Of a stretch of 64,000 bases of DNA, positions 6,012 through 47,560 are shown in pieces. How positions within the stretch are numbered: the first letter of the stretch is position 1; each line of letters starts with the position of its first letter. The notes beneath the pieces are model-generated. The model saw only the letters and a program-made list of their open reading frames with translations. It was not told the origin of the DNA and made no database searches. The stretch comes from an uncultured Alphaproteobacteria bacterium. Lineage in GTDB: Bacteria; Pseudomonadota; Alphaproteobacteria; Rs-D84. The position numbers and the translations under genes were made by a program. The stretch is from positions 248,617 to 312,616 of the forward strand of contig CANSHD010000001.1 in the NCBI GenBank assembly GCA_947646585.1, given 5' to 3'.

Positions 6012-8210
6012 ATGGCAGAGAAGTTCAAGATTTTATCGGCCGGCGGTTCGTCCAAGGGCCTCAATATTTTCAAGTCCAGCGCCTATAAAGAGCACGAGCG
6101 TAAACCGTTCGCGTCACTGTTCTGGTCGTTGCGCTGGGCGATTGGAATATGGCTGGCGTGCGCGCTGGCGTTCGGATTATCGTTTATTGCCGAGCATTTC
6201 TGGCGGTACGGTTTTTCGCCCGCGTCTTGGCGCTGGATGTGGATATATTTAGGTAATGCGGCATCGACATTGGGGCTGTCGGTGGTGGCGGAAATTCCTG
6301 CATGGATTACGCGTTGCGTTGCGCGGCCCGACATGGCGTGTATGGCGCCGCTGTTGCCGGTGGTGGCGTACTTTTTCCTGGCCGATGCGACATTGGTCAA
6401 AGAATTTAATCCGTACGGCAACGACAAATTTGCAGAAAAATCTTCAAACAAGGCCACAAAAGAAGACATTGAAAAAATGGGCCTGCTTAACGGATTTATG
6501 ATGGTGCTGGGGTACTTTAAGAAAAAGCCGTTGATGATGGACGAATGCCTGTCGGCGTTGTGCGTGGCGCCTCCCGGGACCGGTAAGACCCAGGGTGTCG
6601 TTCTGCCGACAATTTTCGACTGTCCCCAGGTGTCGATGATTATCAACGACCCGAAACCGGAATTAAAGCAGAAATCCAGCGCATACCGCGCGACCATCGG
6701 GCCGGTGTTCATTATGAACTGGGCGGGCCAGGACGACCCGGAAAGGGGTATTTATTATCCGTCTTGGAATCCGCTGTCGCCCGAGCACGTACCCTTTAAT
6801 ACCGAGCAGCGCGATTTGTATATCGATTCCATCTGCAATGTTTTGGTTGCGGAAAAGGCGTCGTCGTCCGCGGACCCGCACTGGACGATATCCGGTCGTG
6901 CGGCGCTGTCCGGATTGATTCAGTTTATCGTGTCCAAGGTGGAGCGCGCCAAGGCCGACGACTATTTTTACTCGCGCATTGCCAGCGGCACGTTTGACGC
7001 CGAAGATGCGGCCGTTTTGTCGGATTATTATCTGTCGATGATAAACGACCCGAACGCCTATGCGGCCAGTGCGATTTTACAGCGCGGCGAATTGAACGCG
7101 ATGAACTATGTCCATATCGGAACATGGGAAAACATACCCGACGCATGGAAGGGCAAAGAAGCGTCGCTGTCGATGATTCTGGACTGGCTGAACGCGTCCC
7201 AGATTGCGATTGCCCAGGACCTTGAAAACCGCCGCCGCCAGGGCGACCAGATGGTAATGATGGCGGACCCGATGAAGGACTTGTTCCTGGGCGCGGTTGA
7301 AGAGGCGCGCCGTTATGCATATGCGCATCGTGCGATTCTGGAATTGACCCAGCTGGCCAACACCCCGGACAAGGAACGCGGCAGTATCCTGTCAACCGTG
7401 ATGGCGGGCCTGTCGATATTCCGTAATGCGGCGGTGCGGAACCGGACCAGCCATTCGGACTTCCATTTCTCTGACATGCGCGGCCTGCGCGACCCGCGCG
7501 ACGGCAAGATTAAGCCGGTCACGGTATATCTCTCAATCAACATGGTTGATGCCGAGGCATTGAATCCGATTACCGGAATATTTATAGAATTGATGTCGTC
7601 ATACCTGCTGGCCAACGCGCCCGAGGGCGTGCGCGACGGCCAGAAACTGGGGCCGTATCCTGTACTGTTCCTGTTGGACGAAATGCCGAAAATGCAAAAG
7701 CTGCAGGCGGTGATTCAGGGACCGGACCTGGGACGCGGACAAAAGATATCGTACCTGATTATCGGCCAGGATATTCACCAGATTGCGGAAAAATACGGCC
7801 AGGACGCGGCGGCGACGATTATATCCACAACCGCGGCAAAAATTGTTCTGCGCCAGAACGACCCGGACACTGCAAAGCGCTTTTCCGACATGATGGGTTA
7901 CAAGATGAAGATAAAGACGGACAAGGACGGCAAGGAATCCACCGGCGAGGAATTGCTGTACACGCCGATGGATATTATGAAGCTGGACAAGAAAAAGCAG
8001 CTGGTCATATTCCAGGGGTATTACAACCGCCCGATTGAGGCCGACCACCAGGAAGCATGGCAGGACCCGCGTTTGTCGGGATACATGGCGATGGGCGAAT
8101 CGTCGCCGCTGCCGGAATTTTTAATACCGTCGCACCATGCGGCCATGGGGTACGGCGGCGCGCCGCGCATATATAATCCCCAAACGCACGAGGTTAAGAT
8201 TTTGGCATAA
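6012..8210 (+). CDS. virD4: type IV secretion coupling protein, VirD4/TraG/TraD family ATPase
   Basis: N-terminal TM helices; Walker A VAPPGTGKTQGVVLPT; Walker B-like VLFLLDEMPKM; conserved IIGQDIHQI..TAAKIVLRQND region; 732 aa. Confidence 0.8.
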   Translation: MAEKFKILSAGGSSKGLNIFKSSAYKEHERKPFASLFWSLRWAIGIWLACALAFGLSFIAEHFWRYGFSPASWRWMWIYLGNAASTLGLSVVAEIPAWITRCVARPDMACMAPLLPVVAYFFLADATLVKEFNPYGNDKFAEKSSNKATKEDIEKMGLLNGFMMVLGYFKKKPLMMDECLSALCVAPPGTGKTQGVVLPTIFDCPQVSMIINDPKPELKQKSSAYRATIGPVFIMNWAGQDDPERGIYYPSWNPLSPEHVPFNTEQRDLYIDSICNVLVAEKASSSADPHWTISGRAALSGLIQFIVSKVERAKADDYFYSRIASGTFDAEDAAVLSDYYLSMINDPNAYAASAILQRGELNAMNYVHIGTWENIPDAWKGKEASLSMILDWLNASQIAIAQDLENRRRQGDQMVMMADPMKDLFLGAVEEARRYAYAHRAILELTQLANTPDKERGSILSTVMAGLSIFRNAAVRNRTSHSDFHFSDMRGLRDPRDGKIKPVTVYLSINMVDAEALNPITGIFIELMSSYLLANAPEGVRDGQKLGPYPVLFLLDEMPKMQKLQAVIQGPDLGRGQKISYLIIGQDIHQIAEKYGQDAAATIISTTAAKIVLRQNDPDTAKRFSDMMGYKMKIKTDKDGKESTGEELLYTPMDIMKLDKKKQLVIFQGYYNRPIEADHQEAWQDPRLSGYMAMGESSPLPEFLIPSHHAAMGYGGAPRIYNPQTHEVKILA

Positions 8211-15536: not shown

Positions 15537-16922
15537 ATGTCACAGATAAAGAAAGTTTTAATCGCGAACCGCGGGGAAATCGCCCTGCGCATAATTCGCG
15601 CATGCCGCGACATGGGCATACGAACCGTCGCGGTGTATTCGACCGTTGATAAAAACGCAATGCATGTGCAGTTGGCCGATGAATCGGTATGCATCGGGCC
15701 GGGCCCGTCGCGCGATTCTTATTTGAATGAATCGGCGATTTTGACGGCGGCGCTGCTGACCAACGCAGACGCGATTCATCCCGGATACGGATTTTTGTCG
15801 GAGCGTGCGGACTTTGCGCGCAAGGTGGCCCTGCACGGCTTGATTTGGATTGGGCCCGACGCCGACATGATTGAACGCATGGGCGACAAGGTTAATGCAA
15901 AGCGCACGGCGATTGAATGCGGCCTGCCGGTGGTGCCGGGCTCCGACGGGGCGGTGGATTCTTTGGAATCCGCACTGGCGTGGGGCGAAAAAATCGGATA
16001 TCCGGTAATGCTCAAGGCCTCTGCCGGCGGCGGCGGTCGCGGTATGCGCCCCGTTCACAATGCAGACGAGATGGCAGAGGCTTTCCAGATTACAAAACAG
16101 GAGGCGAAATCCGGCTTTGGCGATGACACGCTGTATATGGAAAAGCTGTTGCTGCATCCGCGCCACATTGAATTTCAGGTACTGGGGGACAAACACGGCA
16201 ACGTTGTGATTTTTGGCGAGCGCGACTGTTCGCTGCAGCGTAAAAACCAAAAGGTTATGGAGGAATGTCCGGCCGCGGCACTGACACAAAAACAGCGCGA
16301 CGACATGATAGAGGTCTGCAAAACGGCGGCGAAAAAGATGGGATACACCAACGCCGGCACGTTTGAGTTCATGTTTGAGGATGGAAAATTCTATTTCCTG
16401 GAAATGAACACGCGTCTTCAGGTGGAACACCCCGTGACCGAAATGGTTTACGGCGTTGATTTGGTGCGCGAGCAGATTCGCGTTGCGGCGGGCGAAAAGC
16501 TGGGCTATACCCAGTCGAACGTTGTTCCGCACGGTCATGCGATTGAATTCCGCATCAATGCCGAAGACCCCGACAACTTTACGCCGAACCCGGGCAAGAT
16601 AACGCTGTACGCGCCATCGGGTGGCCTTGGCGTGCGTGTGGACAGTGCGGTTTACACCGGATACACAATTCCGCCGACATATGATTCCATGATTGCGAAA
16701 CTGATTGTTCATGCACAGTCCCGTCCGGCATGCATCATGCGTGCCCAGCGTGCGTTGGACGAATTCGTGATAGAGGGGGTCAAAACAACAATCCCTCTGC
16801 AGCGCAGATTGCTTAACAACGGCGATGTTCGGAAATTGAAATTTGACAACCACTGGCTGGAAGAATATTTGAAATCGGACGCCGCGAAAAAAGATGCCGA
16901 GGTAAAATCGGACGAAGAATAA
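15537..16922 (+). CDS. accC: acetyl-CoA carboxylase biotin carboxylase subunit
   Basis: [28 protein letters not shown]; ATP-grasp motifs; 461 aa. Confidence 0.95.
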
Positions 16923-16943
16923 AAAAACACCGACAATAACCAC

Positions 16944-16980
16944 CCGCAAAAATATTTATTTTTGCGGGGTTCTATTTTAC
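16944..16980 (+). terminator. rho-independent terminator after accC
   Basis: cccgcaaaaatatttatttttgcggg + T-rich tail. Confidence 0.75.
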
Positions 16981-17060
16981 GTTCGTGGTGACAAAGGTGT
17001 GTAATTGTTTGCTTCGTCCCAATTGTCACCGCGAGCGCAGCGTGGCGGTCCAGTAAATAT

Positions 17061-17088
17061 TTGCAAAGTGCAACTTTTCTGTTATAAT
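17061..17088 (+). promoter_or_regulatory. sigma70-like promoter TTGCAA-16-TATAAT (closely resembles the tRNA-Val promoter)
   Basis: ttgcaaagtgcaacttttctgttataat vs ttgcaatccgatttttctttgttataat at 36435. Confidence 0.4.
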
Positions 17089-17158
17089 TCCCAATGCATC
17101 GGGTGATACCCGGTGTGAGGTGTCATAACCTCTGAAAACATTAAAACTCCACGATTGG

Positions 17159-17169
17159 TTGGAGGCCTG
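17159..17169. repeat. direct repeat TTGGAGGCCTG = copy of tRNA-Cys 3' end (putative att site of a mini-island)
   Basis: identical 11-mer at 17569-17579, which is the acceptor/CCA end of tRNA-Cys. Confidence 0.6.
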
Positions 17170-17259
17170 TGATATATTTGAATAAACAGGACTATCGTTT
17201 TCGTAGTTATGAACCTCCAACCGCCCTTCATCAAGGCGGTGTTTTTAATTTAAAAACAA

Positions 17260-17538
17260 ATGGAGGCAAAAATGAAAAGAATAGATGAAACGGCCGGCCG
17301 TATTGGTGCGGCAATGCGGCACGCCAGAAACACATGTCACCTGCATCAGGATGACATGGCGGTGCTGTTGCGGATAACGCCGGCCGAGCTATACGCATAT
17401 GAGCGCGGTACATTAAAGATACCCCAGGACGTGCTGGAACGGGTTATTCTGATGGGCTTTAAGATGATACACGTACACAGGCTGGAGCGCCTGTACCGAT
17501 GGCGGCGGGATTTGTTTGAAAAATTAAACAACAATTAA
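17260..17538 (+). CDS. small XRE-family helix-turn-helix transcriptional regulator
   Basis: HTH-like segment DDMAVLLRITPAELYAYERGTLKIP; 92 aa; lies inside the DR-bounded segment beside tRNA-Cys. Confidence 0.5.
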   Translation: MEAKMKRIDETAGRIGAAMRHARNTCHLHQDDMAVLLRITPAELYAYERGTLKIPQDVLERVILMGFKMIHVHRLERLYRWRRDLFEKLNNN

Positions 17539-17569
17539 AAAACACCGGTCAATGCCGGTGTTTTTATTT
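17537..17569. terminator. bidirectional terminator (XRE gene / tRNA-Cys)
   Basis: aaaaaacaccggtcaatgccggtgtttttatttt. Confidence 0.75.
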
Positions 17570-17643
17570 TGGAGGCCTGGGTCGGAATCGAACCGGCATA
17601 CAAGGATTTGCAGTCCTCTGCATAACCACTCTGCCACCAGGCC
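17570..17643 (-). tRNA. tRNA-Cys (anticodon GCA)
   Basis: reverse complement folds as GGCCUGG acceptor, GGUUAUG D-loop, anticodon loop CUGCAAA, T-arm GGUUCGAUUCC, discriminator U + CCA; 74 nt. Confidence 0.9.
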
Positions 17644-21022: not shown

Positions 21023-22236
21023 CCTTTAACGATATTTTCAAGGAATCATGGCTGTCGGTGTCCGGGAACAAAATGCGCTCGTTTTTGACGGTTCTGGGTA
21101 TTGTTATCGGTGTTATGGCGGTGGTTATAATGGTTGCCGTCGGCGAAACGGTCGAGCGCCAGATTACGGACCAGTTTTCGGCACTGGGCACCAATACGAT
21201 TATGATTCGCGCCGGCGCGGCCCAGACGGGCGGTGTTCGCACCGGAAACCGCCAGACGTTGACGATTGACGACGCGGAATATATCGGCCGCCTGCCCGAC
21301 GTTATGGCGGTGTCGCCGGTGCAAAGCAGCGGCGCTCAGATAGTATACGGAAACAAAAACTGGTCATCGGTTATGTACGGCGTATACCCCGATTATACGA
21401 CTGTTCAAAACATTGAAATGGACAAGGGTACGTTTTTTGACCAGGCGGCTGTTCGTAATGCGTCCACATACGCGGTAATCGGCCCCACGACGGCAAAAGA
21501 GCTGGACTTGCCCGCTGACCCCGTGGGCCAGGTAATCCGCGTCCAGAATGTTCCTTTTGTTATTATTGGCATGACCAAGGAAAAGGGCGATTCCGGAATG
21601 GGGTCCCAGGACGATATGTTGCTTGTACCGATTACCACGCTGAAAAAGCGCGTCCAGGGCAGTCGATTCCCCAACGCGGTCAGTACGATTGGCATGAAAC
21701 TGTACCCCGATGCGGACAACACCGTTGTCACGAATCAGATAACCGCCCTGTTGCGCGACCGTCATAAATTAAAGGACGACGCGGCCGACGACTTTCAAAT
21801 CATGGATATGAAACAGGTGATGGAGACGATGAGCACCGTCACCGGATACATGAAAATGCTGTTGATTGCGATTGCGGCGGTCTCGTTGCTGGTGGGCTCC
21901 ATCGGCATTATGAACATGATGCTGGTGTCCGTTGCGGAACGTACGCGTGAAATCGGCGTGCGCAAGGCCATCGGCGCGCGCGAGCGTCAGATAATCATTC
22001 AGTTCCTGTCCGAATCGATATTTATATCGTTTATCGGCTCTATGGCGGGATTGTTGCTGGGTGTCGGCCTGTCCCAGGGTGTGGGGCGCTTTATCATGGG
22101 CTATAACGTGCCGTTTTCGGCCTGGCCGGTTGTGCTATCGGTATCGGTTGCGGTAATTGTTGGCCTGGCGTCCGGTGTTATGCCTGCATTAAAGGCGGCA
22201 AAGCTGAACCCGATTGACAGTCTGCGCTATGAATAA
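21019..22236 (+). CDS. MacB/FtsX-type ABC transporter permease
   Basis: N-terminal TM + large periplasmic domain + C-terminal FtsX-like 3-TM bundle (..RKAIGARERQII..). Confidence 0.88.
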   Translation: MTFNDIFKESWLSVSGNKMRSFLTVLGIVIGVMAVVIMVAVGETVERQITDQFSALGTNTIMIRAGAAQTGGVRTGNRQTLTIDDAEYIGRLPDVMAVSPVQSSGAQIVYGNKNWSSVMYGVYPDYTTVQNIEMDKGTFFDQAAVRNASTYAVIGPTTAKELDLPADPVGQVIRVQNVPFVIIGMTKEKGDSGMGSQDDMLLVPITTLKKRVQGSRFPNAVSTIGMKLYPDADNTVVTNQITALLRDRHKLKDDAADDFQIMDMKQVMETMSTVTGYMKMLLIAIAAVSLLVGSIGIMNMMLVSVAERTREIGVRKAIGARERQIIIQFLSESIFISFIGSMAGLLLGVGLSQGVGRFIMGYNVPFSAWPVVLSVSVAVIVGLASGVMPALKAAKLNPIDSLRYE

Positions 22237-22268
22237 AAAACGGCGGATATTCCGCCGTTTTTATTTTA
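22237..22268. terminator. bidirectional terminator (macB permease / Cys-rich gene)
   Basis: aaaaaacggcggatattccgccgtttttatttt. Confidence 0.8.
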
Positions 22269-22773
22269 CATAATGACATTTGTCGGTGTATGTAAATCTG
22301 CCCCCGGCGTCTGTCCCGGTTGTCCCCGCCGGCAGATAGCATTCCGTTATTGATGCCGCGCCGGTTGAATCCGTCGTGCCGGCAACGCCGCCGGATCTCG
22401 GGCACGCGGTGCATGATGCGGCCGCGGCGGCATTGTTATATCTCCCCTGGGCGCATGGCTTGCATGACGTCAATGTGTTGTCCGCCGCCGAATAGTACCC
22501 CGCCCCGCACGCATTGCACGTGCATGTGGATGTATTGCCGCTGGATTTGTATCCGGCATTGCATTTGCATCGATATGATGTTGTCGCGGTCGGACAGCAG
22601 AGTGTCGTGGTGTTGATGCCGTCGCATTTGGGGCAGTGTTTTGATTGGCGCACGCCGTTGCTGATTGGGCTCCACATATCCATCCAGTCGTTGTTAAGTG
22701 CCGCCAATGCCGGGCATGCGTTCGGCCACGCCGCCGCGCCGATACATATGCATGTGATGATTGATTTTCTCAT
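22261..22773 (-). CDS. secreted cysteine-rich repeat protein (ephrin-receptor-like / GCC2_GCC3-like CxxCxxGxY...CxxCP units); paralog of 47228-47835
   Basis: signal peptide; ~20 Cys; C-terminal block CTACPRSGG..ITECYLPAGT..FTYTDKCHYVK aligns with CTRCPSSGG..ITSCYIPSGT..TYTGDCYYKN of 47557 ORF. Confidence 0.6.
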   Translation of the reverse strand: MRKSIITCICIGAAAWPNACPALAALNNDWMDMWSPISNGVRQSKHCPKCDGINTTTLCCPTATTSYRCKCNAGYKSSGNTSTCTCNACGAGYYSAADNTLTSCKPCAQGRYNNAAAAASCTACPRSGGVAGTTDSTGAASITECYLPAGTTGTDAGGRFTYTDKCHYVK

Positions 22774-22796
22774 GATTTCAATTCCCTTTTGTTTTT

Positions 22797-22827
22797 GTTA
22801 AACAAAAACCGCCGTTGGAATTGGCGG
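22797..22827 (-). terminator. hairpin + U-run in the 5' leader of the Cys-rich gene (attenuator-like)
   Basis: minus-strand ccgccaattccaacggcgg followed by tttttgttt; ~20 nt upstream of SD/ATG. Confidence 0.4.
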
Positions 22828-23111
22828 TCGGGGATTGAAAAAATCATATATAGAAATGACCCTGCGATTTTCGGGCGTGCCCTGTTGTATAATCGCAGAC
22901 CCCCGACCGGTTTGGTCGGGTTGCAAAAAACAGCGGTGCCAATGCACCGACGTTTTTAGTCGGATTTACAATGCAAACATGTGTTCGCACCGTCTCTATA
23001 AAGGATTTTTCAAGTCCCGAAGCCACATCCGTTGTGTCTTCGAACAAATTGTTGCAAACACGACACCTTTTTACAAGAAAAAACATTTGTGTATTGACAA
23101 AAAGATATTAT

Positions 23112-26082: not shown

Positions 26083-26112
26083 GAAAACACCGGCGATTGC
26101 CGGTGTTTTTTC
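26083..26112 (+). terminator. rho-independent terminator after pal
   Basis: aaacaccggcgattgccggtgtttttt. Confidence 0.8.
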
Positions 26113-26126
26113 ATTCCGGTATTAAA

Positions 26127-26210
26127 CTGGATTGCCACGGTCGTTTCACTCCCTCGCAATGACAGCGAGCCTGGAACGATTGTCATTGCGAACGAAGTGA
26201 AGCAATCCAG
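26127..26210. repeat. MITE/REP-like nested palindromic element, copy A
   Basis: outer IR ctggattgc/gcaatccag; inner IR ctcgcaatgacag/ttgtcattgcga. Confidence 0.8.
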
Positions 26211-26237
26211 TAAATGATGAACATCGCCGCTTTATTC

Positions 26238-26341
26238 GGAATTGCCGCGTCGGCGTAATCGCCTCCTCGCAATGACAGTGGCGGGTAATGTTGCAATTTA
26301 TCTCCATTGTCATTGCGAGCCCCAACGGGGCGTGGCAATCC
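26238..26341. repeat. MITE/REP-like nested palindromic element, copy B (tandem to A)
   Basis: ggaattgcc..cctcgcaatgacag..ttgtcattgcgag..ggcaatcc. Confidence 0.8.
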
Positions 26342-31458: not shown

Positions 31459-32315
31459 TTGTTGGTGTTGTCGGCGCCGGTGCATGGGGCACGGCGCTTG
31501 CCGTTACGGCGGCGCGCGGCGGGGCGGATGTTGTGTTGTGGTCTTATGACGGCGGGGCAAAGGAATTTGACGGCATCGCGATGCCGGCGTGCGTGCGTTT
31601 AACGCGCGACATGGCGGATTTGCGCGGTGCGGACGTATGGCTTGTCGTGACGCCGGCCGCATATTTCCGCGAGACTGTGCGCGCCGCCCGCGATTATTAC
31701 AACGGTGTGCCGGTGATAATATGCACCAAGGGGGCCGAGTATTCGACAGGGTGCTTTATGTCAGAAATACTGCGTACGGAGTTGCCGGCATGCAATGATT
31801 TCGGCGTTTTGTCCGGGCCCCAGTTCGCGGCCGAGGTTGCCGCCGGCGTGCCCACGGGCTCCACTTTGGCGGGAACGCCGCTGGCGCGCCGTGTCGGGGC
31901 CGCGGCGCTGAACAAACTGTACATCAGCGAAAGCGACGACGTAATCGGCGCCGAGATGTGCGGCGTCGGCAAGAATGCGGTCGCGCTTATTTGCGGATAT
32001 ACCAGTATAAAATCCGGCGAGAACGAGCGCGCGATGATTTTCACCCGCGCCTGGGGCGAGGTTGTGAAAATCGGCATGGCGCTGGGGGCGAAAGAGGGCA
32101 CGTTCTTGGACTTGTGCGGAATCGGCGATTTGTTCCTGTCGGCGACGTCGGCAACGTCGCGCAACTTTGCCGCCGGCATGGCGATTGCAGAGGGGCGTCC
32201 GATACAGGGCACCGTTGAGGGTATCTTTGCATTGTCCGGCATACTGTCGCGTGCGGAAAGTTTGGGGATAGGGACGCCCGTGCTGTCCGAAATGCGGCGC
32301 ACGCTGAAATTGTAA
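31455..32315 (+). CDS. gpsA: NAD(P)H-dependent glycerol-3-phosphate dehydrogenase (short form)
   Basis: MIVGVVGAGAWGTALA Rossmann; ICTKGAE..; GPQFAAEVAAGVPT; 286 aa vs ~330 typical. Confidence 0.78.
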   Translation: MIVGVVGAGAWGTALAVTAARGGADVVLWSYDGGAKEFDGIAMPACVRLTRDMADLRGADVWLVVTPAAYFRETVRAARDYYNGVPVIICTKGAEYSTGCFMSEILRTELPACNDFGVLSGPQFAAEVAAGVPTGSTLAGTPLARRVGAAALNKLYISESDDVIGAEMCGVGKNAVALICGYTSIKSGENERAMIFTRAWGEVVKIGMALGAKEGTFLDLCGIGDLFLSATSATSRNFAAGMAIAEGRPIQGTVEGIFALSGILSRAESLGIGTPVLSEMRRTLKL

Positions 32316-38591: not shown

Positions 38592-39155
38592 ATGAAACTG
38601 GTTCTGGTATCTTGTTGCGCGCCGTGCAGCGCGGGCGCAATAAAACAATTGGCGGACGGGCAAATCCCGGACGTCGATGATTTTGTCGTGCTGTTTTTCA
38701 ACCCGAATATTTTTCCTGCGTCCGAATATCAAAAGCGCATGGCGGAACAGATAAAATACTGTGACACGCTTGGCGTAAAACACGTGGAATTGGAATACGA
38801 CCACGCCGCATGGCGCGATGCGGTGGCGGGGCTGGAATCCGAACCCGAACGCGGTGCGCGGTGCAGTGCGTGTTTTGAGTTTCGTTTTGCACGCGCGGCC
38901 CGTTTCGCCCGTGAAAACGGTTATGATGCGGTGGCGTCGGTTCTGGGCGTGTCACGACATAAAGACCAGACCCAGGTTGACTGTGCGGCGTCCGCGGTAT
39001 GCGGTAACGTAAAATATTTACCGATAAAGTGGGACGAAGCGCTGCGTCAACAAATCGGCCGTGCATCCGACTTTTACCGCCAGAATTATTGCGGTTGTGA
39101 ATTTTCTATACGCAAAGCAGCGGCATTGATTCCGGATACCATTCAAACAGCGTGA
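38592..39155 (+). CDS. queH: epoxyqueuosine reductase QueH (DUF208)
   Basis: LVSCCAPCS motif and downstream Cys pairs (CSAC, CGC); 187 aa. Confidence 0.72.
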   Translation: MKLVLVSCCAPCSAGAIKQLADGQIPDVDDFVVLFFNPNIFPASEYQKRMAEQIKYCDTLGVKHVELEYDHAAWRDAVAGLESEPERGARCSACFEFRFARAARFARENGYDAVASVLGVSRHKDQTQVDCAASAVCGNVKYLPIKWDEALRQQIGRASDFYRQNYCGCEFSIRKAAALIPDTIQTA

Positions 39156-39548
39156 ATATCATTATTTGCTGATATACGCTTGGCTTTTTATTTTTTGCGA
39201 TAATTGAATTATATTCAGACTCGGTTTCCAAATCCATTGCATTGCACATAATGTATATCGGTATGTCGGCATGGATTCTGGCGGCCTCTATGCGTTGCCC
39301 GGTCAGCATCTGAATTCCCCCGTGATTTTATAAAGAAAAAACCATCGGAATAAAATTCAGATGGCTGGAGGTTCACTACTATAATCAGCTATAGCGTCGC
39401 TTATTCAATATATTCGCGACCCTCCAGCCAGTGGTTGGAGATTTTCTGTTTTTTACAAACAGGCTGAAAAGGGGTAGCGAACCCCGCCCACGGAATACCC
39501 GCCGGCAAATATATTATATATTGAATAAAAACAATTTGCAAATAATTA

Positions 39549-39651
39549 CTGGATTGCTTCGGCATTCGCCTCGCAATGACAAAGGCGCGGAATGTTGCGC
39601 TTCATCACTCTTGTCATTGCGAGGAGGGCATAGCCCGACGTGGCAATCCAG
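39549..39651. repeat. MITE/REP-like nested palindromic element, copy C
   Basis: ctggattgc..cctcgcaatgaca..ttgtcattgcgagg..ggcaatccag; same family as 26127-26341. Confidence 0.8.
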
Positions 39652-39728
39652 TCAATGATGTATACGATTTATTTGCGATTGCAAATTTTTATGTCTATAA
39701 TTTACCCGTGATTTATTAAGGAGGACGT

Positions 39729-46944: not shown

Positions 46945-47051
46945 AAAATAACTGGCAAAAATTCTTACCATGCTATATACTTTTTATGTCGCGGCGTGTT
47001 GCCGTGATGAGGCCTGATAACCTCGTTTACATGCGTCGGAATAAGTACCTG

Positions 47052-47075
47052 TTGGCGCGGCGCGCCATTTTTATT
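47052..47075 (+). terminator. probable terminator downstream of nth
   Basis: tggcgcggcgcgcca palindrome followed by tttttatt. Confidence 0.5.
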
Positions 47076-47093
47076 ACGACGTTAAATATACAG

Positions 47094-47113
47094 CTCCTGA
47101 CCCGGGTCAGGAG
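47094..47113. promoter_or_regulatory. 20-bp perfect palindrome CTCCTGACCCGGGTCAGGAG upstream of the Cys-rich operon
   Basis: perfect dyad; CCTCCTGACC half repeated at 47164-47173. Confidence 0.45.
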
Positions 47114-47227
47114 GGTTGCGAATATATTGAATAAGCACGCAATTCATGTAAATTGTTATCAGCCTCCTGACCACCAAAATTTGGTGGTTTTTTGTTTCAC
47201 ACAAACAAAAACCAAGGAGGTTTGAAA

Positions 47228-47560
47228 ATGAAACGTCTTTTAGCCATCGGAGCTTTTCTTATCCCGATATCGGGGGCGGATGCGGCTTTTGTATTGTGTC
47301 AGGACTCGTCATCGTGCATTAAGCTCACAACAACGGCCAAGCCGTATTGCTGCAAATCGGGAACCGCAAAAACATGTCCGTACGGATGGATCGCATCGGG
47401 CAGCACATGCACACGTGCCAGCACCACAGGCAGCGATACATACGGATATTATACCCAGACATATGGCACCTGTGCCGCGACCGAGAAACAGTGCTACGAG
47501 GCCAGCAGCAACGGCTACAATTCAGATGGAACCGCATGTTTTAGGAGGGTAGATATATGA
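47228..47560 (+). CDS. secreted cysteine-rich protein (paralog family with 22261-22773 and 47557-47835)
   Basis: SD aaggagg 8 nt upstream; signal peptide MKRLLAIGAFLIPISGADA; 13 Cys, T/G/S/Y-rich; CC..G....C..G[YW] pattern shared with 22261 ORF. Confidence 0.55.
   Translation: MKRLLAIGAFLIPISGADAAFVLCQDSSSCIKLTTTAKPYCCKSGTAKTCPYGWIASGSTCTRASTTGSDTYGYYTQTYGTCAATEKQCYEASSNGYNSDGTACFRRVDI

Follow-up and report, generated by a model that had tools for sequence, protein, structure and literature searches.

Does an exact 11-bp repeat that takes in the 3′ end of a transfer RNA (tRNA) gene mark the scar of an integrated element, or can it have another origin? This question is raised by a locus in a 64,000-nucleotide stretch of DNA (positions 248,617 to 312,616 of contig CANSHD010000001.1, GenBank assembly GCA_947646585.1; the whole stretch is hereafter called the window) from an uncultured alphaproteobacterium of the Rs-D84 lineage. 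The sequence TTGGAGGCCTG is present on the plus strand at positions 17159–17169 and 17569–17579 of this window, the second copy contains the end of a tRNA-Cys gene, and a gene for a small helix-turn-helix (HTH) protein lies between the two. An initial annotation of the sequence took the pair to be the attL and attR sites of an integrative element that had inserted at the tRNA 3′ end and was reduced to a regulator-only remnant. The explanation that we favor, with a probability of about 0.72, is that the pair is coincidental, that the locus carries an insertion of a leader-HTH module belonging to a large Enterousia family, and that the leader of this module is a two-state switch. This module comprises a remnant of a repetitive extragenic palindromic (REP)-like element, a promoter, a structured leader of ~155 nt with an intrinsic terminator, and a gene for an 88-aa HTH protein of the XRE type. 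The feature worth pursuing at this locus is the bistable leader RNA family, not an att site.

The insertion and its junctions

The HTH gene sits on an insertion that some conspecific strains have and others lack. In contigs L010–L015, the accC gene is followed by its terminator, a 56–58 bp spacer, the tRNA-Cys gene and an OEP gene, with no HTH gene and an intergenic region of ~265 bp. The AccB protein of the window is encoded identically on many public contigs, and contigs L001 and L016–L019, which come from other samples, reproduce the arrangement of the window, so it is not an assembly artefact.

The boundaries of the insertion were obtained from a gap-tolerant alignment of the window to an empty-site contig, L012, in which three blocks correspond: 16890–16921 with L012 11812–43, 17537–63 with 11844–70 (26/27 identical, the accC terminator), and 17564–17620 with 11927–83 (57/57 identical, the tRNA and its 3′ flank). 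The segment that is missing from conspecific empty-site contigs is 615 bp long (16922–17536, plus strand) and lies between the accC stop codon (16920–22) and the ancestral accC terminator. It is flanked by a repeat of its own, AAAAAACACCG, seen in the L012 alignment and by direct reading of the sequence, with its left copy at 16922–16932 and its right copy at 17537–17547 (both plus strand), the latter being the 5′ half of the terminator that matches the accC terminator of empty-site strains; owing to this repeat, the position of the insertion is ambiguous by 11 bp. Relative to L012, the insertion is accompanied by a 56-bp deletion between the accC-type terminator and the tRNA.

Relatives with an empty tRNA-Cys site therefore exist, as the initial annotation led one to expect, and what changes is the extent of the inserted segment, which is corrected to 16922–17536. 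The first copy of TTGGAGGCCTG lies 237 bp within the insertion, the right junction falls in the accC terminator and not in the tRNA, and neither the tRNA nor its 3′ flank is altered. No gene for a recombinase, integrase or excisionase was found within ~10 kb on either side (Pfam, syntenic contigs) or among 10 further open reading frames (ORFs) of the window. The most likely route of entry for the module is recombination, either illegitimate or guided by short homology, at sequences of terminators or A-runs, with no part played by a tRNA-targeting integrase. The low GC content that had been noted between the repeats is real (0.459 versus 0.533 for the window), but the HTH coding sequence has a value of 0.506 and the deficit stems from the non-coding leader (0.427), so the argument for foreign DNA from base composition was rejected.

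The two module insertions that have been mapped, one behind accC (16917–16922) and the other behind macB (22231–22240), both start right after the stop codon in the context GAATAA-AAAA.

A leader RNA with a three-way junction

The region 17094–17250 (plus strand) folds well below shuffled sequences (z = −4.8), and folding and covariation identify it as a leader RNA (W1), one of four leader copies in the window (W1 to W4). Five leader sequences give a three-way junction with a P1 helix of 9–10 bp, a P2 helix of 5 bp that carries a 15-nt loop (consensus GAWWWWWUUGAAUAA), and a P3 helix of ~7 bp. In W1, P1 is formed by 17157–65 and 17214–22 (5′ strand GGTTGGAGG), P2 spans 17166–17190 (5′ strand CCTGT, 17166–17170; loop GATATATTTGAATAA), and P3 spans 17191–17207; on the same strand, this junction is preceded by a segment termed the 5′ Alt strand (17117–17129) and by box1 (CTCCA, 17147–17151), and is followed by a terminator stem (17220–25/17235–40) with a U-run at 17242–46. 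UUGAAUAA is also found at the end of the conserved P2 loop, which recalls the GAATAA-AAAA context of the insertions and may be coincidence.

Compensatory changes are found in 11 of the 22 pairs of P1, P2 and P3 among the five sequences. When 116 sequences are aligned, 93.6% of the cells are paired, compared to 79% for shuffled and ~40% for slid alignments, and the number of double-change cells is 332 versus 114. The abundance of G-U pairs indicates that the structure is formed by RNA, and on this strand. By the same token, a reading of the palindrome GGTTGGAGG...CCTCCAACC as an integron attC site was rejected, and the order of its core sites is reversed on both strands. The conserved junction and loop suggest, by analogy with riboswitches, that the RNA may hold a binding pocket.

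The first copy of TTGGAGGCCTG consists of the 7 nt that close the P1 5′ strand (GGUUGGAGG), followed by the 4 nt that open P2 on its 5′ side. An RNA stem that is conserved family-wide thus accounts for seven of the 11 bases (TTGGAGG); this heptamer is common to 72 of 121 leaders, with bases that vary behind it (GTTG, GCGG, GTCG and others). The extension to CCTG after GGAGG is confined to leaders of HTH orthologs, where P2 has the form CCUGY/RCAGG, and in the ortholog at L040, which reads GGAGGGCUGU...ACAGC (GCUGU...ACAGC), the change is compensated in the P2 partner. A leader subclass represented by L034 (~2981, minus strand) and L077 (~6213, plus strand) contains CAGGCCUCCAACC, which is this 11-mer read in the other sense and is assembled from junction bases and the 3′ strand of P1. 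The conserved core has therefore repeatedly gained 4-base extensions that match the tRNA-Cys end by chance. In a test for an association of P1 type with ribosome-binding site (RBS) type, the longest shared substring was 4.26 versus 4.11 (p = 0.001), a result that we do not rely on, as it is confounded by module ancestry.

An alternative fold and a proposed switch

The terminator stem starts inside the P1 3′ strand, and in 85 of 87 leaders the two share 3 nt or more. Box1 copies the P1 3′ strand, so it could sequester the P1 5′ strand, and it covaries with the strand it copies (longest shared run of 6.65 nt for a leader's own pair versus 5.41 nt for swapped pairs, sd 0.125). The Alt strand (17117–29 in W1) pairs with a segment that runs from the P3 3′ strand through the junction into the P1 3′ strand (17206–17), and the energy of this duplex is −13.4 kcal/mol for a leader's own strands versus −9.2 kcal/mol for swapped ones (sd 0.22). 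In an alignment of 71 leaders made by MAFFT from sequence only, double changes are seen in 8 of the 12 pairs of the Alt helix, and the paired fraction of its cells is 88.9%; for all 17 pairs that Alt and box1 contribute to the second state, this fraction is 91.4%, compared to 35–60% when the strands are slid.

The leader therefore has two mutually exclusive folds, each of which is supported by covariation. For W1, the calculated energies are −54.3 kcal/mol for the Alt fold with a full terminator and −52.7 kcal/mol when P1 is enforced and the terminator disrupted, so the two states are nearly isoenergetic; the corresponding values are −65.3 and −56.4 kcal/mol for W2, and −85.1 and −68.3 kcal/mol for W3.

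The first of these folds, State 1, is the P1/P2/P3 three-way junction, in which the P1 3′ strand takes 3–4 nt of the terminator 5′ arm. In the second, State 2, the Alt strand occupies the P3 3′ strand together with the junction and the P1 3′ strand, box1 pairs with the P1 5′ strand, and the terminator is complete. In the switch that we propose, transcription in State 2 would be expected to end before the gene (OFF), while State 1 would permit read-through (ON). A factor that stabilizes the junction, be it a ligand, a protein or another RNA, would then select between the states, possibly by way of the conserved 15-nt P2 loop, for which no partner was found.

The HTH gene and its signals

The gene behind this leader would be transcribed from a predicted sigma-70-type promoter, TTGCAA-16-(TG)TTATAAT (17061–17088, plus strand; promoter scan), whose −10 element is conserved in L002, L075, L139 and L141. 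This promoter had been pointed out before, without its TG extension, as belonging to the element between the repeats; it exists, and it lies outside that interval. The existence of a terminator is likewise borne out, by the hairpin in the leader (17220–17246), which was read from the sequence and folded and is not listed by the terminator scan, and by a bidirectional terminator hairpin after the gene (17538–17565) that matches the L012 accC terminator at 26/27 positions. A further terminator-like hairpin carried by the insertion (16943–16968, plus strand; terminator scan) is now directly downstream of accC.

The ORF at 17260–17538 does encode the 92 aa originally reported, but homologues have 88 aa, so the likely start is the ATG at 17272 (gene at 17272–17538, plus strand), an assignment that rests on homologue starts and on a GGAGG RBS at 17262–66. 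HTH_31 matches the window protein with E=1.7e-5 and 25.5 bits, under a cut-off of 27, and both HTH_31 and HTH_3 are below Pfam cut-offs for this protein and clear across its family: among 22 members, 14 match HTH_31 and 10 match HTH_3, with a best value of 6e-13. The family profile also matches Protein Data Bank chains that carry the name of Xre-family regulators, such as 7t8i at 4e-7, with a best match to 8tac (DBP48) at 1.6e-9. At the level of the family, the sequence comparisons thus point to an XRE/Cro-C1-type HTH protein. Close homologues of the window protein form only two clusters among 5.8 billion proteins, which were used for locating other contexts and not for assigning function, and a metagenome scan for relatives yielded 4 loci only.

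A leaderless mini-ORF of 13 codons (MHRVIPGVRCHNL) may be present at 17094–17135, extending from the predicted transcription start site (TSS) through the 5′ Alt strand and containing one Cys codon. Its ATG is retained in L002, L075 and L141/142 and replaced by GTG in L040 and by ACG in L139, and W2 has no such codon; as the start codon is not conserved, an attenuation peptide was not adopted as an explanation for this reading frame.

The same module at other loci

The HTH module is found at sites other than tRNA-Cys. Contig L002 (GCA_029060095.1) is collinear with window positions 32128–19248 at 88–93% identity, except for the position of the module: in L002, the promoter-leader-HTH-terminator unit is located between parB and ompA, its leader retains TTGGAGGCCTG, and no tRNA was found in the 12-kb locus. 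In the conspecific contigs L003–L007 and L013, the module again lies beside ompA, and it is only ~90% identical to that of the window when the flanking genes are 96–98% identical. The parB-ompA intergenic region (26112–26340 in the window) has three alternative contents among strains, namely REP-like repeats in the window, the HTH module in L002–L007 and L013, and a different leader-gene module in L012. The last of these (L012 19620–20317, minus strand) has a leader with P1 GGTCAGGAGG/CCTCCTGACC, a gene for a 192-aa secreted Cys-rich protein, and the same terminator on the ompA side.

Two further contexts are informative. In L075, L141 and L142, from another species whose HTH protein is 41–44% identical, the module follows ~100 bp behind an identical tRNA-Cys, with both pointing the same way, and the 11-mers form an inverted and not a direct repeat. 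In L139, the module has yet another setting, with no tRNA within ~3 kb upstream. The first copy of TTGGAGGCCTG travels with the module to sites without a tRNA (L002 and L139), so the pair in the window is not attL/attR.

A large family of leaders

A pattern scan of species-representative genomes found at least 119 leader loci; among the loci listed, nearly all are in Candidatus Enterousia or in unnamed metagenome-assembled genomes of gut Alphaproteobacteria/Rickettsiales, with several per genome. With a covariance model, 100 of the loci yielded 116 copies and the others a further 28, for a total of >140 in Enterousia/Rs-D84 genomes. Enterousia is placed in the order Rs-D84, and its genomes are mostly <1 Mb (PMC12306168). 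Four leader copies per 64 kb in such a reduced genome imply strong selection.

A start codon lies ~20 nt past the leader in most of 99 cases. Among the 99 downstream ORFs, a single family of small XRE-type HTH proteins, which includes the 88-aa and 67-aa proteins of the window, accounts for 35; another 35 encode a signal peptide and a Cys-rich protein, 12 a signal peptide only, and 17 other small proteins.

The other modules of the window illustrate this range. W2 (39106–39660, minus strand) consists of a REP-like element (39545–39660), a promoter, a leader (39443–39331) with P1 GGCTGGAGG/CCTCCAGCC, and a gene for a 67-aa protein of the HTH family (39309–39106). W3 (46985–47560, plus strand) has a leader (47092–47198) with the same P1 strands as the L012 module, GGTCAGGAGG/CCTCCTGACC, and a gene for a 110-aa secreted Cys-rich protein (47228–47560). 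The divergent W4 (22241–23091, minus strand) has a leader (22922–22798) and a gene for a 170-aa Cys-rich (Ephrin_rec_like) protein (22773–22261), and the whole block is missing from the conspecific contigs L012 and L013.

The match to tRNA-Cys

The tRNA-Cys(GCA) gene was identified by ARAGORN and Rfam at 17570–17643 on the minus strand, and it is 74/74 identical to that of another species (L141, L142). The exact pair of 11-mers is present as first described, and its second copy does correspond to the acceptor/CCA end of this tRNA: it is the complement of CAGGCC-U-CCA (acceptor 3′ strand, discriminator U and CCA, 17570–17579), the last 10 nt of the tRNA, plus one flanking base. A check on the frequency of TTGGAGGCCTG found it to be rare, with these 2 copies in the whole window and no third even when ≤1 mismatch is allowed.

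How unusual is this match? The window contains 109 direct pairs of 11-mers ≤600 bp apart, so repeats of this kind are common. An 11-mer from the 23-nt end of tRNA-Cys recurs within ±1.5 kb in shuffled sequences with p = 0.007, and for the two other tRNAs examined by the same measure the longest matches are 7–8 nt only. The match between the tRNA end and the leader is unusual, though not overwhelming.

Alternative explanations

Several points weigh against a coincidental repeat and a two-state leader. Termination, read-through and the TSS are predictions, and the leader could instead be a stand-alone small RNA (sRNA). The search pattern by which relatives were collected already prescribed the GGAGG/CCTCC core and the P2 loop, which makes their invariance partly circular; the covariation lies outside them. 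In addition, the sole leader clade that matches the tRNA-Cys end adjoins tRNA-Cys in two arrangements, for which chance is uncomfortable (p ~0.007). We rank the explanations of this adjacency as chance, then local homogenization by template switching, then functional pairing.

An unlikely alternative, and the one that survives best, is that the leader acts in trans as an sRNA in its own right, with its 3′ end at the terminator, the gene expressed separately and the folds serving maturation or target pairing. The presence of a promoter and a strong intrinsic terminator, the weak resemblance of W1 to sRNA-Xcc1 (26.5 bits) and a minimum free energy structure that is State 2, with the terminator kept, are all consistent with an sRNA. 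However, no separate promoter was detected in the ~15–20 nt between the terminator and the RBS of W1, the one leader scanned, the start codon is at a fixed distance of ~20 nt in most of the 99 cases, and the overlap of P1 with the terminator and the box1/Alt competitors are typical of expression platforms.

It is improbable, although in keeping with several observations, that the 11-mer pair is a neutral by-product in which template switching or gene conversion beside tRNA-Cys extended a 7-nt similarity (TGGAGG in both) to 11 nt. An arrangement like that of L075 would have existed at the origin, compensation in P2 would have followed, and all HTH-type leaders would have inherited the result. 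The restriction of CCTG to the HTH-ortholog clade, the position of this clade beside tRNA-Cys in two arrangements and the retention of P2 pairing (CCUGY/RCAGG) would all follow from such a history. The proposal is purely inferential, as no intermediate states have been seen, and chance alone may be responsible, given that the L034/L077 leaders came to contain a comparable 11-mer in the other sense.

Direct pairing with the tRNA has a very low probability in our estimation. In this case, UUGGAGGCCUG in the leader would bind the 3′ end of uncharged or precursor tRNA-Cys in the manner of a T-box or a primer-binding site, displacing P1. The complementarity to CAGGCCUCCA-3′ is perfect over 10 nt whatever the DNA orientation (window, L002, L075, L139, L141 and L142), UGGA could pair with UCCA-3′ as in T-box antiterminators, the leader has the properties of a terminator/antiterminator switch, the module lies beside tRNA-Cys in two arrangements, and the possible 5′ mini-ORF has a Cys codon. 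Against these stand the burial of 6 of the 10 tRNA bases in the acceptor stem, and the fact that the family shares UUGGAGG only, so that members with CAGGAGG or GGUCGGGG cannot pair with the CCA end. The leader also lacks a Stem I, a specifier loop and a T-box sequence, the T-box model (RF00230) gave no match at E≤10 in W1, W2 or W3 and no other Rfam family reached threshold, and the complementary stretch is P1 sequence that is not conserved family-wide. As P1 varies and the site change in L040 is compensated in its P2 partner, T-box-like or primer-site-like pairing was rejected as a feature of the family.

The least probable explanation is the original one, that the 11-mers are the attL and attR of an islet in the tRNA-Cys 3′ end that decayed to its regulator, which would entail a deletion junction CACGATTGG-TTGGAGGCCTG-GGTCGGAATCG or a 410-bp circle: it draws on the exact direct repeat with the tRNA 3′ end, the strain-variable segment with its empty site and the second species that has an HTH module beside tRNA-Cys, but the junctions are at 16922 and 17536/47, the promoter and 5′ leader lie to the left of copy 1, copy 1 is constrained by RNA pairing and accompanies the module to loci that have no tRNA, the repeat is inverted in the tandem arrangement, and no integrase or excisionase was found.

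Comparison with known systems

Several characterized systems invite comparison with this locus. An Rfam scan of the whole window at gathering thresholds found three tRNAs and nothing else, and in scans of the W1, W2 and W3 leaders by E-value no family reached threshold. W1 matched sRNA-Xcc1 (RF02221) with 26.5 bits compared to a gathering score of 53, and W2 and W3 gave no match to it at E≤10, so membership was rejected. sRNA-Xcc1 is an integron- or transposon-borne sRNA of Xanthomonas and other proteobacteria that, like the leader, is tied to mobile gene cassettes (PMC2996969, Rfam description). It also resembles W1 in outline, with a 9-bp closing stem, two internal hairpins, a joining strand of ~6 nt and a CCCUU tail, whereas it comes from other taxa and has no documented terminator switch.

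Like terminator/antiterminator riboswitches, the leader has covarying structure and exclusive terminator and anti-terminator pairings directly upstream of an ORF, with P1 over the terminator 5′ arm, competitor strands upstream, and covariation for both states. Unlike them, it is in no Rfam family, it is present in many copies per genome of <1 Mb, and the genes downstream encode small XRE regulators and secreted Cys-rich proteins in place of metabolic or transport functions. The proteins themselves resemble the XRE/Cro-C1 HTH families, with the 88-aa product and 34 other leader-associated proteins matching HTH_31, HTH_3 and HTH_19, and differ in being very small (60–95 aa).

What the locus has in common with islands that target tRNAs through tyrosine integrases is a direct repeat that includes the tRNA-Cys 3′ end, a strain-variable gene and a conspecific empty site. 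It differs from them in having junctions at the accC stop codon and terminator, a distal repeat that is internal to both the insertion and an RNA helix, and no integrase. Of four features of tRNA-targeted elements that were tested, the empty site was found, while repeats at the ends, a crossover in the tRNA and an integrase were not.

Implications

This locus is a cautionary case for island hunting, since it combines a perfect repeat of a tRNA end with a real empty site and has no att footprint. Checks on the frequency of the 11-mer and on the empty site would have passed the att interpretation; it is the mapping of junctions and the covariation of the RNA that show otherwise.

The locus also brings to light a leader RNA that is abundant and lineage-specific, a candidate for an orphan riboswitch or attenuator in a gut alphaproteobacterium that is uncultured and has a reduced genome. 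This RNA is in addition a marker for the part of the gene content that varies, namely small HTH regulators and secreted proteins rich in Cys. Searches of the available literature on Enterousia and Rs-D84 turned up no title or abstract on a leader RNA of this kind. We raise as a tentative possibility, which we hold to be rather doubtful, that these leaders constitute a new riboswitch-like class, a bistable three-way-junction RNA that has a conserved 15-nt loop and would sense a signal and coordinately gate dozens of strain-variable cassettes in the <1 Mb genomes of Enterousia/Rs-D84. If so, the leader RNA would be a master switch for a variable repertoire of host-interaction functions, composed of small XRE regulators and secreted Cys-rich proteins. 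A bolder version of this proposal is that the HTH-type leader might additionally read the tRNA-Cys 3′ end.

Other features of the modules and the window

A degenerate element with similarity to REPs or miniature inverted-repeat transposable elements (MITEs), GTCACCGCGAG...CGTGGCGGTCC, occupies 16985–17058 (plus strand) and abuts the W1 promoter, and the same arrangement is found upstream of W2. REP/MITE-like palindromes of the form GGATTGCCACG...CTCGCAATGACA...TGTCATTGCGAG...CGTGGCAATCC occur at 26112–26340, 39545–39660 and, in degenerate form, 16985–17058. Such palindromes lie directly upstream of the leader promoters of W1, W2, L074, L026, L070 and L039, and they could be recombination hotspots or operator sites.

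Short-read contigs from many Logan samples (L001, L003–L009, L016–L019 and L148–L151) end inside the leader, for example at positions equivalent to window ~17104–17122 or ~47131, and a look-up of the W3 flank retrieved only contigs that break inside the leader. Breaks of this kind are expected if exact words of ≥31 nt are common to leader copies or to co-existing strains, and they mean that leader modules will be systematically fragmented in metagenome assemblies.

The leader motif is also present in five IMG/VR contigs classed as viral (L143–L147), and L144 has genes for P2-like tail proteins ~4 kb away; these matches probably stem from provirus calls that extend into flanking host DNA, and as such are not informative. 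Finally, the window contains a gene for a VirD4/TraG-type coupling protein of type IV secretion systems (6012–8210, plus strand; Pfam T4SS-DNA_transf and TrwB_AAD_bind in syntenic contigs), in a lineage with genomes of <1 Mb.

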